64,000 nt of DNA, taken from assembly GCA_965228895.1 (NCBI GenBank), contig OZ245842.1:1152001-1216000 (forward strand), in the 5' to 3' direction. Below, piece after piece: positions 11,028-15,152 of this stretch; positions within the stretch are counted from its first letter, which is position 1, and each line of letters starts with the position of its first letter. Made by a program: the position numbers and the translations under genes. This DNA comes from Alphaproteobacteria bacterium. GTDB lineage: Bacteria; Pseudomonadota; Alphaproteobacteria; SP197. The notes beneath the pieces were generated by a model, which saw nothing but the letters and a program-made list of their open reading frames with translations, made no database searches and was not told where the DNA came from.

Positions 11028-12116
11028 ATGCTGTTTAATCTCCTGTCGCCTCTGTCCGAAGATATTGGTGCGCTCCGGTTGTTCTCGTTCATTACGTTCC
11101 GGACCGGCGGCGCGATCCTGACGGCGCTTTTGATCAGCCTGATCTTTGGCCCGCTGGTGATCCGGTGGCTGAAGTCGGTTCAGGGTAAGGGTCAACCGAT
11201 CCGCAGCGACGGACCGGAGAGCCACATCATTACCAAGGCCGGCACGCCGACCATGGGCGGTGTCCTGATCCTGCTGTCACTGGGCGTCGCGACGCTGCTC
11301 TGGGCCGACCTGTCGAACGGCTTCGTTTGGATCGTCCTGCTGCTGACGCTTGGCTTTGGCGCCATCGGTTTTGCCGACGACTATCTGAAGGTCACCCATC
11401 AGACCAGCAAGGGTCTGTCGGGTTACGTTAAGCTGGCGATGGAAATCGTGCTGGCATTGGTCGCAGCGTTCGCCATCGCCGCGTTGACCGAAAGCCATCT
11501 GTCGTCGCATCTGGCTATGCCGTTCCTGAAAGACGTCCTGGTTAATTTCGGCTGGTTTTTCTTGGTCGTCGTTGTCTTTGTCATCGTCGGCGCATCAAAC
11601 GCCGTCAACTTGACCGATGGGCTGGACGGTCTGGCGATTGGCCCGATCATCATTGCGGCGATGACGTTCGGTATCATCTGCTATCTCGCCGGTAACACGG
11701 TTTATGCGTCCTACCTGCAGCTTCCGTTGGTCGTTGGCGCCGGTGAATTGGCTGTGCTGTGTGGCGCGCTGGTTGGCGCTGGGCTCGGCTTCCTGTGGTT
11801 CAACGCACCGCCTGCCATGGTGTTCATGGGCGACACCGGCAGCCTTGCCAGCGGGGCCGCGCTGGGCAGCATCTCCGTCGTGACCAAGCACGAGCTGGTG
11901 CTGGCGATCGTCGGCGGTCTTTTCGTTCTTGAGACGGTCTCGGTGATTGTCCAGGTCGTCTCGTTCAAGGTCACCGGCCGCCGTGTCTTCCGTATGGCCC
12001 CGATCCATCACCACTTCGAAAAAATGGGCTGGGCTGAACCGACAATCGTGATCCGGTTCTGGATCATCGCCATTGTGCTGGCGCTTGTCGGTCTTGCCAC
12101 CCTGAAGTTGAGGTGA
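11028..12116 (+). CDS. mraY: Phospho-MurNAc-pentapeptide transferase
   Basis: [44 protein letters not shown]. Confidence 0.98.
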
Positions 12117-12120
12117 GCCG

Positions 12121-14031
12121 ATGATCGATCTTTCACGCCACGCAGAGTCATCGATCGCGGTCTTCGGGCTGGGACGTTCCGGCGTTTCGAGTTCCCTTGC
12201 GCTGGCCGCGGCCGGCGCACAGGTCCATGCCTGGGACGATGATCCCGCGCGGCGCCGTCTGGCCGCCGACAAGGGCGTCACGCTCAATGACCTCTATCGT
12301 CTGGAGTGGGACATCGTGCGCGCGCTCGTTCTGAGCCCCGGCGTGCCGCTGACCCATCCGGCACCACATCCGCTGGTCGCCCGCGCGATGGCGGCCGGTG
12401 TCGAAGTGATCGGCGACATGGAGCTGTTTGCCCGCTCGCGTCCGCCGGGTCGCGTCGTCGGCGTTACCGGCACCAACGGCAAGTCGACGACGTCGGCGTT
12501 GATTGCCCACCTGATCCGCGCGTCCGGCCGCTCGGTGCAACTGGGCGGCAACATCGGTACGCCGGTCCTGGACCTCGACCCGCTGGACGAAGACGGCATC
12601 TATGTTCTCGAGCTGTCGTCTTATCAGCTCGATCTGATTCGCTCGCTGGTCAGCGATGTCGCGGTCCTGTTGAATTTGTCGCCCGATCACGTCGAACGCC
12701 ATGGCGATTTCGCCAACTATATCGCAGCGAAAACGCGCATCTTCTCGCGCCGGGCATCCCATCAGACATCGGTCATCGGCGTTGATGACGACATCTGCCG
12801 GCGCATTCACGCCGAGCTCGCGGGCCGGCGCGGCCGCACCATCATTCCGGTGTCGGTACTGCGCCGTGTCGCCGACGGTGTCTATGTCAAGAAGGGCGTT
12901 GTGATCGACGAGACGTCAGGTAAACCGGACGAGGTCGTCGACCTCAGCAAGGTCAAGGTGCTGCCCGGCGTGCACAACTGGCAAAACGCCGCGGCCGCAC
13001 TTGCCGCTATTCGTGCGCTTGGTATTCCCGCCGACGAAGTGGCGAAGGCATTCAAGACATTCCCCGGCCTGGCGCACCGCCAGGAAGTCGTGTGCAAGGT
13101 CGGCCGGGTTACCTTTATCAACGACAGCAAGGCGACCAACGCGGCCGCGGCCGCGCGCGGCCTTGCCTGTTACGACCGTATCTACTGGATTGCCGGTGGA
13201 CGCGCCAAGGAGGGCGGCATTGCGACGCTCTCTCCGTACTTCCCACGGATGGCTCACGCCTTCCTGATCGGGGAGTCCGCCGGCGCATTCGCCCAGACAT
13301 TAGAAGGACGCGTGCCGTACTCCGTAAGCGGCGATCTTGCGACAGCCGTCAAGCAGGCTAGCGATATGGCGCTGGCTGACCGACGTGCCGGCGCGATCGT
13401 TTTGCTGTCACCGGCATGCGCGTCTTTCGATCAGTTCTCCGATTTTGAAGATCGGGGGAACAAGTTCCGTGAAATCGTGCTCGCAGAAAAGAGAAAGCGC
13501 GATCAGGAACTTGAGAAGGACACATCTCTTGTCCCACCCGCAACACGCAAAAGGGGGTCTGACATGGCCACGAAACGTTCTTCGGCCAAGAAGTCAACTG
13601 CCAAAAAGAAAGCTGCCAAACGCAAGGCTCCGGCCAAGCGCAAGGCCGCGACCAAGAAGAAAGCCGTCAAGCGCAAAGCGCCGGCGAAACGTAAGGCTGC
13701 GACCAAGCGTAAGGCTCCGGCCAAGCGCAAAGCCGCAACCAAGAAGAAAGCCGCCAAGCGTAAGGCTCCAGCCAAGCGCAAAGCAGCGACCAGGAAGAAA
13801 GCCGCCAAGCGTAAGGCTCCGGCCAAGCGTAAAGCAGCCAAGCGGAAGACGGCTAAGCGTAAGGCTCCGGCCAAGCGCAAAGCGGCCAAGCGCAAGGCTC
13901 CAGCCAAGCGTAAGGCAGCGAAGAAAAAAACCGCCAAGCGCAAGGCTCCGGCCAAACGCAAGGCAGCCAAGCGCAAGGCTCCGGCCCGGCGTAAGGCTCC
14001 AGCCAAGAGGAAGACCGCTAGGAAGAGATGA
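12121..14031 (+). CDS. murD: MurD (UDP-MurNAc-L-Ala:D-Glu ligase) read in frame into a C-terminal histone H1-like basic repeat
   Basis: FGLGRSG, LSPGVP, TGTNGKSTT, ELSSYQL, NDSKATN, LLSPACASFDQF; no in-frame stop until 14031. Confidence 0.93.
   Translation: MIDLSRHAESSIAVFGLGRSGVSSSLALAAAGAQVHAWDDDPARRRLAADKGVTLNDLYRLEWDIVRALVLSPGVPLTHPAPHPLVARAMAAGVEVIGDMELFARSRPPGRVVGVTGTNGKSTTSALIAHLIRASGRSVQLGGNIGTPVLDLDPLDEDGIYVLELSSYQLDLIRSLVSDVAVLLNLSPDHVERHGDFANYIAAKTRIFSRRASHQTSVIGVDDDICRRIHAELAGRRGRTIIPVSVLRRVADGVYVKKGVVIDETSGKPDEVVDLSKVKVLPGVHNWQNAAAALAAIRALGIPADEVAKAFKTFPGLAHRQEVVCKVGRVTFINDSKATNAAAAARGLACYDRIYWIAGGRAKEGGIATLSPYFPRMAHAFLIGESAGAFAQTLEGRVPYSVSGDLATAVKQASDMALADRRAGAIVLLSPACASFDQFSDFEDRGNKFREIVLAEKRKRDQELEKDTSLVPPATRKRGSDMATKRSSAKKSTAKKKAAKRKAPAKRKAATKKKAVKRKAPAKRKAATKRKAPAKRKAATKKKAAKRKAPAKRKAATRKKAAKRKAPAKRKAAKRKTAKRKAPAKRKAAKRKAPAKRKAAKKKTAKRKAPAKRKAAKRKAPARRKAPAKRKTARKR
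13564..14031 (+). CDS. Histone H1-like Lys/Arg/Ala/Pro-rich protein (155 aa), in frame with murD, with its own initiation site
   Basis: AAGGGGG RBS then ATG at 13564 (MATKRSSAKK...); ten RKAPA units; no acidic residue; stop overlaps ftsW ATG. Confidence 0.7.
   Translation: MATKRSSAKKSTAKKKAAKRKAPAKRKAATKKKAVKRKAPAKRKAATKRKAPAKRKAATKKKAAKRKAPAKRKAATRKKAAKRKAPAKRKAAKRKTAKRKAPAKRKAAKRKAPAKRKAAKKKTAKRKAPAKRKAAKRKAPARRKAPAKRKTARKR
13610..14025 (+). repeat. Degenerate coding tandem repeat (AAGCG(C/T)AAGGCTCCGGCCAAGCG(C/T)AA core)
   Basis: Repeated KRKAPAKRKAA(T/KKK) units with synonymous third-position variation. Confidence 0.9.
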
Positions 14032-15152
14032 CAACTTTCGCCCGCACGGACCGCAGCTTACTAGGAAGATGGTGGTGGACCGTCGACCGGTGGACGCTGG
14101 CCGCGCTCGTGATCCTGATGCTCTGCGGAGTCATCTTGATCATGGCGGCCAGTCCGCCGGTCGCGGACCGCATTGGTGCGGACTCGTTCTATTTCGTGCG
14201 GCGACAGTTCATCTTTTTACCGATTGCACTGGCCGTGTTGATGGCCGTTTCCCTGCTATCGCCGCAGGGCGTGCGTCGGCTTGCTGTTACTGTATTCGGA
14301 ATCTCGGTCGTGCTTTTGGTGCTGACCCTCTTCATTGGGGCCGACATCAAGGGTTCACGTCGTTGGATTGCTTTGCCGGGATTCTCATTGCAGGCGTCGG
14401 AGTTCGTAAAGCCGGCTTTTGCCGTCGTTGTCGCCTGGATGTTTGCCGAACAGCGTACCCGCCCGGGATTTCCGGGCGACCTTGTAGCTCTTTGCCTGTT
14501 CATCTTGGTTGTCAGTCTTATCGTGCTGCAACCCGACTTTGGCATGGCCGCCACGGTTACGGCGATCTGGGGCGGCCTATTTTTCCTCGCCGGCATGCCG
14601 CTCATCTTGGTAGCCGGCGTGGCGGGGGTCGTCGTGGTCGGGCTGATAGCCGGCTACACCTTCCTGCCGCATGTCGCGGATCGGATCGATCGCTTTCTCG
14701 ATCCGACATCCGGTGACAGTTTTCAGGTGAACACGGCATTGAGAGCGTTTGAATCCGGAGGAGTCTTTGGACGGGGGCCGGGCGAAGGCGTCGTTAAGGA
14801 CGTCCTGCCCGATGCCCATTCGGACTTTATCTTCGCCGTCGCCGGCGAGGAGTTTGGTCTGCTCGTCTGTTTGCTGATTGTCGCGTTGTTCGCCTTCGTC
14901 GCATTACGCGGATTGATCCGCTTGATGTCGGAGAAGGATCTTTTTGTCTTGTTGGCTGTCGCCGGACTGCTGATTCAGTTCGGGGCCCAGGCGGTGGTCA
15001 ACATGGGCGTTACGCTGCGTCTGGTGCCGTCGACCGGGATGACGCTGCCGTTCATGTCCTATGGCGGGTCGTCGCTGGTGGCGATTGCCATCGCCATGGG
15101 CATGGTGCTGGCGCTGACACGGCGCCGGCCCGAACACGGGAGGCCGTCATGA
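14028..15152 (+). CDS. ftsW: Peptidoglycan polymerase FtsW
   Basis: WWWTVDRW, GSRRWI, QASEFVKP, QPDFG, LPDAHSDFIFAV, GMTLPFMSYGGSS. Confidence 0.97.
   Translation: MTTFARTDRSLLGRWWWTVDRWTLAALVILMLCGVILIMAASPPVADRIGADSFYFVRRQFIFLPIALAVLMAVSLLSPQGVRRLAVTVFGISVVLLVLTLFIGADIKGSRRWIALPGFSLQASEFVKPAFAVVVAWMFAEQRTRPGFPGDLVALCLFILVVSLIVLQPDFGMAATVTAIWGGLFFLAGMPLILVAGVAGVVVVGLIAGYTFLPHVADRIDRFLDPTSGDSFQVNTALRAFESGGVFGRGPGEGVVKDVLPDAHSDFIFAVAGEEFGLLVCLLIVALFAFVALRGLIRLMSEKDLFVLLAVAGLLIQFGAQAVVNMGVTLRLVPSTGMTLPFMSYGGSSLVAIAIAMGMVLALTRRRPEHGRPS

Follow-up and report, generated by a model that had tools for sequence, protein, structure and literature searches.

A long in-frame polybasic tail on MurD, with a probable nested start codon, in the division and cell wall cluster of an alphaproteobacterial family

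Results

The window analysed here is a stretch of 64,000 nucleotides (nt) from an alphaproteobacterium (positions 1,152,001 to 1,216,000 of contig OZ245842.1, GenBank assembly GCA_965228895.1), whose genome, hereafter G000, is a single 5.53-Mb contig with 62% G+C. Within its division and cell wall (dcw) cluster, the frame of the peptidoglycan ligase gene murD continues past the usual end of the protein into a linker and a long polybasic tail (Table 1). Flanked by mraY and ftsW, the frame occupies the place expected for murD in the dcw cluster, and its neighbors mraY, ftsW, and murG all score over the curated cutoffs of NCBIfam. There are no in-frame stops between the MurD core and position 14029; the frame remains open past the MurD end ...SFDQFSDFEDRGNKFREI and closes with a TGA that overlaps the ftsW ATG (14028) as ATGA. 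A preliminary description of this DNA had reported a murD frame open through a linker and a 155-residue basic repeat, with ten RKAPA units, no Asp or Glu, and a stop overlapping the ftsW ATG. Each of these features was confirmed in 12121-14031, with the linker measuring 29 residues. The same description had held that murD usually abuts ftsW. To represent loci outside the family we used the best matches listed, which were 80 from named organisms (one not parsed) and 80 from metagenomes, all of them more distant MurDs and none a member of the family. Consistent with the earlier statement, ftsW came next in 69 of the 79 named loci, at a median offset of -3 nt. At four Caulobacter loci (L087, L088, L094, and L096) the ftsW match starts 2.1-2.6 kb past the murD stop, with something inserted in between.

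Table 1. Features of the extended murD locus and other genes of G000 encoding basic tails. Positions are those of the window unless prefixed with G000:C1.
Feature	Position	Strand	Remarks
mraY	11028..12116	+	Upstream dcw gene; TIGR00445, 406 bits (cutoff 192)
Extended murD open frame, 636 codons + TGA	12121..14031	+	Predicted 68.5 kDa, pI 11.0
MurD catalytic core, residues 1-452	12121..13476	+	TIGR01087, Pfam, AlphaFold2
Linker VLAEKRKRDQELEKDTSLVPPATRKRGSD, residues 453-481 (29 residues)	13477..13563	+	Between MurD core and tail
Shine-Dalgarno-like AAGGGGGT	13551..13558	+	5 nt upstream of in-frame ATG
Putative nested in-frame open reading frame = polybasic tail, 155 codons + TGA	13564..14031	+	ATG 13564-13566
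Tandem-repeat DNA coding KRKAPAKRKAA-type units	13601..14020	+	64-84% matches
ftsW	14028..15152	+	TIGR02614, 342 bits (cutoff 337.5)
Topoisomerase I (TopA), lysine-rich C-terminal tail	G000:C1:2035739-2038444	-	Locus L159
Trigger factor, C-terminal (KKAAAKKAPA)n	G000:C1:2175634-2177316	+	Locus L158
Class A penicillin-binding protein (transglycosylase + transpeptidase)	G000:C1:4771843-4773933	+	Locus L157, outside window

By its equivalog profile, TIGR01087, the catalytic part of the frame is a full MurD. It scores 358.3 bits (cutoff 211.95), with model positions 2-440 of 441 aligned to residues 12-454. Among Pfam families, Mur_ligase_M matched with an E-value of 5e-27 and MurD-like_N fell slightly under its cutoff (26.8 vs 27 bits). 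Residues T116-S122 (TGTNGKS), K204, H190, and D335-N340 were invariant among 40 aligned MurDs, and we take the TGTNGKS stretch to be the conserved nucleotide-binding motif. AlphaFold2 (AF2), given the 40-sequence alignment, returned a confident three-domain MurD fold with predicted local distance difference test (pLDDT) scores mostly above 90 to about residue 460, and the first part of the linker continues the last MurD helix (H442-469 in the model). G+C content at third codon positions was 0.52 in the linker as opposed to 0.75 in the MurD core. The tandem repeats that follow have periods of 15, 18, 33, 51, 69, 81, and 87 nt, each a multiple of 3. No promoter-like sites were found within 13300-14200, and the same interval held one terminator-like site on the minus strand, a number within chance expectation.

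The 155 residues of the tail (K57, A49, R25, P10, T9, S3, M1, V1) include no Asp or Glu, carry a net charge of +82, and contain 10 RKAPA units and 8 KRKAPAKRKAA units. AF2 assigned pLDDT scores below 50 to most of residues 471-636, with 10-residue block means of 42-51, and the tail is predicted to be disordered and C-terminal to the folded MurD. We found no match to any Pfam family in the tail, including HC2 (PF07382), whether the query was the whole protein, the tail, or the linker plus tail (E-values up to 1 and 10). The earlier characterization of the tail as histone H1-like was upheld by its composition, which is rich in lysine, alanine, and proline (K/A/P), acid-free, and repetitive, but not by the HC2 family profile. 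Given the lack of a Pfam or HC2 match, 'H1-like' therefore refers here to compositional likeness and not to family membership.

The junction was checked by comparing the assembled contigs of four sequencing runs over positions 13200-14200. Run X1, which may be the source of the assembly, covered the whole interval with 0 substitutions and 0 gaps, and run X2, from another study, covered it with 1 substitution and 0 gaps. Contigs from runs X3 (13200-13829, 19 substitutions) and X4 (13258-13785, 10 substitutions) likewise had 0 gaps. An indel restoring a murD stop, which had been proposed beforehand as grounds for rejecting the fusion, was absent from the contigs of all four runs across the junction. 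Up to position 14004, 25 of the 30 contig substitutions occurred at third codon positions of the murD frame (10/12 in the core, 3/3 in the linker, and 12/15 in the tail). Between G000 and G002, a member of the same genus, the 452 codons compared in the core had 128 synonymous and 10 non-synonymous differences, and the 150 codons compared in the tail had 30 and 13, plus 6 gap columns. The substitution pattern and the excess of synonymous differences indicate that the linker and tail are read in the murD frame, under purifying selection that is looser than in the core.

Other long open frames extend across the repeat (13337-14716 on the plus strand and 13503-14034 on the minus strand; 459, 167, and 146 amino acids). 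We rejected these other-frame and antisense reading frames as genes and consider them by-products of a G+C-rich repeat, as the third-position pattern backs the murD frame alone. Separately, positions 13387-13710 (murD codons ~423-530) had nearly no synonymous differences between G000 and G002, as compared to ~28% of codons differing elsewhere. This low-divergence tract may reflect recent recombination or nucleotide-level constraint.

The family, one of marine alphaproteobacteria, comprises 33 species genomes from five genera (g1-g5). Long in-frame K/A/P tails followed MurD in 10 of the 33, belonging to three genera (g1, g2, and g4), in line with the earlier suggestion to look for conservation at the murD-ftsW junctions of relatives. 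The tail is complete in five of the ten, namely G000 and G002 (g1) and G005, G014, and G042 (g4); in these last three, the SPACASFD motif is followed by 242, 250, and 146 residues, respectively. In g2, the tails of G003, G007, and G010 are each ended by a contig edge inside the repeat. Contig ends also cut the tails of G041 and G045 (g4), where other contigs start in K/A/P repeats and enter ftsW. Three further fused proteins of 630, 639, and 648 residues were found in other public assemblies, one of them named MurD by its source. Repeat units vary between genera (KRKAPAKRKAA; KKAPAKKAAA; KKAPAKKKAVPKKAAV; KKALARKKAAPKKAAA), and composition is retained.

A tree of the MurD catalytic part was built with 37 rows, omitting G001 (a 90-residue fragment) and G046 (broken). 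The MurDs of g1, g2, and g4 formed one clade of 27 with support of 100/100, and all 27 have a basic extension of 9-222 residues with a net charge of +1 to +88. Within g4, a subclade of 13 genomes has extensions of just 9-34 residues (27 in ten of them), and in G019 the extension is nearly lost at 9 residues. Members of g3 and g5 and six outgroups have ordinary MurD ends of 2-11 residues with a net charge of -2 to +2. No polybasic MurD tail was found among the 79 named alphaproteobacterial loci listed (27-56 residues after the motif) or among the 80 metagenome loci listed (20-58 residues, net -6 to +2). Among the best 150 matches from 1.84 billion cluster representatives, two extend beyond residue 470: P0065, which is a family member, and P0069. 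The latter is an unrelated 614-residue MurD from another lineage (45% identity) with a C-terminal extension of ~150 residues that is mixed and S/A/K-rich. It contains APARKTR, a motif that is also present in short g4 tails.

In each of the ten long-tail genomes the basic region opens with an ATG codon, and an invariant [A/G]GGGG core lies at a fixed distance of 7 nt ahead of it. The core falls in an AGG codon in 7 of 7 genomes with Arg and in a GGG codon in 3 of 3 with Gly, although these make up 3.7% of Arg codons and 9.4% of Gly codons, respectively, in G000. The two spacer codons between the core and the ATG vary (SD, AD, TV, ID, KD, and ST). We computed Shine-Dalgarno (SD) duplex energies with the genome's own 16S 3' end and obtained -12.5 kcal/mol at the internal ATG (13564). 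This is close to the value at murD's own start (-12.8 kcal/mol), with the mraY, murG, and murC starts at -9.5 to -10.7 kcal/mol and the same internal site in the other long-tail genomes at -9.2 to -11.9 kcal/mol. In 2,759 long, probably coding frames, 23 of 24,671 internal in-frame ATGs (0.09%) were as strong. The ATG at 13564 is an in-frame start codon with an SD at working distance, and SD and codon are conserved beyond the needs of the protein sequence in all ten genomes, which are kin. Where the tail has shrunk to 28 residues, in G012, the SD is kept and the start codon is GTG. Short-tail genomes have ACG at this position, except for G018, which has ATG and a weak SD (-7.1). An SD and an ATG that are both conserved, with a freely varying spacer between them, form the pattern of a ribosome-binding site. 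To judge from that pattern, ribosomes probably also start at 13564 and make a free protein of 155 residues (17.1 kDa, pI 12).

A whole-genome composition scan of G000 returned four K/A/P polybasic tracts, of which the MurD tail is the longest by far. The others belong to trigger factor, TopA, and a class A penicillin-binding protein (PBP), the last of which has a cytoplasmic N-terminal K/A/P tail of ~50 residues (net +25) ahead of its membrane helix. The trigger-factor tail had a sub-threshold HC2 match (29 bits, cutoff 40). As for TopA, its lysine-rich tail resembles that of actinobacterial TopA, here in an alphaproteobacterium. Across the family, the trigger-factor end has a net charge of +12 to +14 in g1, +12 in G041, -1 to +2 in g2 (mixed K/A/P and acidic), -2 to -6 in g3 and g5, and a strongly acidic -7 to -16 in the short-tail g4 clade (-13 to -16 in 10 of 13). 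The PBP tail is long in g1 (+21 to +28), shorter in g2 (+12 and +17; two of three parsed), +9 in G041, and just of MKKRKP type in the short-tail clade (+5 to +7; G019 not parsed). Trigger-factor and PBP tails therefore tend to track the MurD tail, although the PBP pattern is not clean because g3 and g5 have +13 to +15. The MurD tail is the most extreme instance of this lineage-wide habit. Beyond the family, K/A/P (HC2-like) tails occurred on NYN-S1 ribonuclease-like proteins, adenylate kinase, malate dehydrogenase, and GAPDH (P0005-P0064), with two NYN-S1 proteins named by their sources as coming from Actinomycetota and Microthrixaceae metagenome-assembled genomes (MAGs). Basic tails on housekeeping enzymes are widespread.

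A free-standing counterpart of the tail was sought in three ways. Among proteins of 85-272 amino acids, no close relative was found, and nine matches were weak and low-complexity. Querying the 33 family genomes with the tail returned MurD tails, two contig-end fragments entering ftsW, and one frame of 946 amino acids in G003, and no free-standing H1-like gene, in a search that is weak on low-complexity sequence. One composition filter applied to G000 likewise found no free-standing H1-like gene. Since no donor gene of this kind was found, in-situ growth of the repeat is likelier than capture of an H1-like gene.

Discussion

We hold with moderate confidence that this locus is a genuine, lineage-specific extended murD that gives a tailed ligase plus a probable nested polycation, with the tail serving as a putative polyanion binder. 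As there is no stop before the tail, every ribosome translating murD would make the MurD-linker-tail fusion, and the locus probably yields both this 68.5-kDa fusion and a free 17-kDa H1-like protein. We propose that three genera of a single alphaproteobacterial family share an ancestor in which the usual murD end was lost and a basic, disordered C-terminal extension was gained; as its tandem repeats expanded in frame, this extension would have reached 155 residues here and up to ~220 in relatives. Sequence conservation suggests that the strong SD and the ATG at the tail's first codon let ribosomes also start there. The resulting free 17-kDa polycationic H1-like protein would be expressed along with the operon for division and cell-wall synthesis, and ribosomes from the internal start would be delivered to the overlapping start of ftsW.

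What the tail may do is argued by analogy. PMC9239181 describes a 154-residue KPAA domain in AlgP that binds DNA and associates with polyphosphate (polyP) granules, and PMC5714199 and PMC3553676 describe lysine repeats on Streptomyces TopA and mycobacterial Ku that modulate DNA binding. By likeness to the AlgP, PhaF, and TopA tails, the MurD tail would bind polyanions (DNA, polyP, or membrane) non-specifically, most likely nucleoid DNA. The fusion would then act in the manner of PhaF, whose C-terminal domain anchors the N-terminal cargo on the nucleoid, and would keep MurD as its cargo on the nucleoid or some other polyanion. The free form would be a small protein associated with the nucleoid or polyP and produced in step with the genes for division. 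The preliminary description had offered a tethered ligase and a co-expressed nucleoid protein as alternatives. Because the conserved SD and ATG sit exactly at the tail start, both are probably true. A stronger version, in which the nested dcw gene makes abundant free H1-like protein and the fused form ties the peptidoglycan pathway to the chromosome such that nucleoid state, precursor supply, and division are coupled, strikes us as doubtful.

Several observations weigh against our explanation. The tail lacks an H1 or HC2 profile match. Its long form is dispensable, given G019 and the 13-genome short subclade. In G046 (locus L153, G046:C14), a draft MAG, the tail is present with several frame changes in the linker and tail, which may be draft indel errors or decay of the tail. 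Slippage keeps the frame without selection, since the repeat periods are all multiples of 3. That trigger factor, TopA, and PBP also carry K/A/P tails suggests a general tendency, which weakens a reading specific to MurD. With respect to the internal start, the ten long-tail genomes are kin, so that 10/10 overstates their independence, and SD-like motifs within genes can also be pause sites. We dropped the scarcity of synonymous differences in the linker as a sign of constraint by a ribosome-binding site, because the low tract spans codons ~423-530.

We weighed five other explanations, which are taken here in order of our confidence in them. The most credible, although unlikely, is that only the fusion is made and that GGGG...ATG is an inherited protein sequence (Arg/Gly-Gly ... 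Met) or a pause site and not a start. The fusion must be made in any case, there being no stop codon; public gene callers predict the long protein (630-648 amino acids, one named MurD), the search of 85-272-residue proteins returned no separate small protein, and the linker is conserved at the protein level too. However, all 10 genomes retain the rare codons AGG, GGG, and GGA while the amino acids encoded by adjoining codons change, the ATG stays at a set distance from them, and its duplex energy places it among the top 0.09% of internal ATGs. Moreover, the ATG coincides exactly with the edge of the basic region and is missing from the short-tail forms, G018 excepted. Less credible again is low-complexity growth that is merely tolerated, in which replication slippage expanded the murD 3' end and the tail has no specific role. 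A length that varies between 9 and 222 residues inside a single clade would fit this account, as would repeat periods in multiples of 3, predicted disorder, and K/A/P tails on trigger factor, TopA, and class A PBP with sizes that tend to follow the MurD tail. It would not explain why composition is held (no acidic residues, net +82) while units diverge between genera, why substitutions are mostly at third positions, or why the tail is kept in three genera with a conserved SD and ATG at its start.

We give equally little credence to a membrane tether, by which the tail would bind anionic phospholipids and hold MurD near MraY and MurG to channel peptidoglycan precursors. The location of murD between mraY and ftsW/murG speaks for it, and the class A PBP of the same genome has a similar cytoplasmic N-terminal tail beside a membrane helix. 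An 854-residue MurD-MurG fusion among the cluster representatives (P0107), which has no ftsW between its parts, further shows that physical coupling of these steps is selectable. Conversely, the tail is without a hydrophobic or amphipathic element, and the AlgP, PhaF, TopA, and Ku tails are reported as DNA or polyP binders (PMC9239181, PMC5714199, and PMC3553676). More improbable still is that the main role of the internal SD and ATG is to re-establish translational coupling to ftsW on the far side of the 465-nt insertion, with the peptide as a by-product. The tail TGA overlaps the ftsW ATG, the SD upstream of ftsW itself is weak (-4.5), and ATGA overlaps are associated with coupling (PMC6728339), but ribosomes translating murD reach the ftsW start anyway, and in the g4 relatives the tail stop and ftsW ATG do not overlap. 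Finally, a lost stop or an indel might have joined murD to a separate downstream gene through sequencing or assembly error. Repeats do break assemblies, with 5 of the 10 long-tail relatives cut there, and the frame of G046 is broken. Nevertheless, the frame is open in gap-free contigs of four runs, in five complete family genomes, and in three further public proteins, and an artefact is essentially excluded.

In keeping with the preliminary description, whose author knew of no account of such a protein, our search of the full-text literature turned up no report of a MurD tailed in this way, with most subscription journals outside its coverage. Basic enzyme tails and in-frame internal starts are already known; it is their combination on an essential dcw Mur ligase that is new. 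K/A/P tails have been known on DNA enzymes and granule proteins, and a +82 tail on an essential cell-wall ligase is new to the searched literature. If the tail binds the nucleoid, the family offers a natural experiment on whether a tethered Mur enzyme can work, as well as a handle on links among the chromosome, polyP, and cell-wall synthesis. Use of the internal start would make the locus a clear and conserved example of a bacterial gene that encodes both an enzyme and an architectural protein unrelated to it, and a nested gene of this kind would be invisible to standard annotation. Annotators should be aware that the long 'MurD' proteins of this family are genuine and do not result from erroneous fusion. 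The tailed arrangement is real, and it is both conserved and unusual; the function proposed for the tail rests on analogy.

Comparison with known systems

The closest parallels are PhaF and AlgP of Pseudomonas, in which an N-terminal folded module precedes a disordered tract of ~150 residues made up of tandem K/A/P repeats in variable copy number (PMC9239181). According to the same source, AlgP has a net charge of +55 over 154 amino acids, as compared to +82 over 155 in the MurD tail. The MurD system differs in that its cargo is an essential peptidoglycan ligase, it has a nested start codon, and binding by its tail is predicted. Its unit is an R-rich 11-mer (KRKAPAKRKAA) and not KPAA, and there is no detectable homology. 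Tandem KPAA-type tetrapeptide repeats are absent from the MurD tail of G000, and the KKAPAKKAAA-type units of relatives are closer to them.

Hc2 of Chlamydia (PF07382) is similar in having lysine- and alanine-rich repeats whose number varies among strains (PMC2848022). In contrast, Hc2 stands alone and the MurD tail has no PF07382 match at E-values up to 10. Basic low-complexity repeats also occur at the C-terminus of actinobacterial TopA and mycobacterial Ku (PMC5714199 and PMC3553676). Those enzymes act on DNA and their tail serves the substrate, whereas MurD has no known nucleic-acid substrate. In DdbA of Streptomyces, an H1-like basic domain is fused to an unrelated DksA-like domain (PMC3643593), although there the H1-like part is N-terminal and its partner is a transcription factor.

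In-frame internal initiation, in which a start with its own SD lies inside a longer open reading frame, is described in reports on genome-wide retapamulin mapping (bioRxiv 10.1101/520783) and Cas11b (PMC11899642). The short product of murD would differ from these in consisting entirely of a low-complexity polycation, with its use predicted on grounds of conservation. Mur enzymes also occur fused to other modules, as in the MurD-MurG protein P0107. While that fusion joins two enzymes of the same pathway, the module added to MurD here is non-enzymatic and predicted to be disordered.

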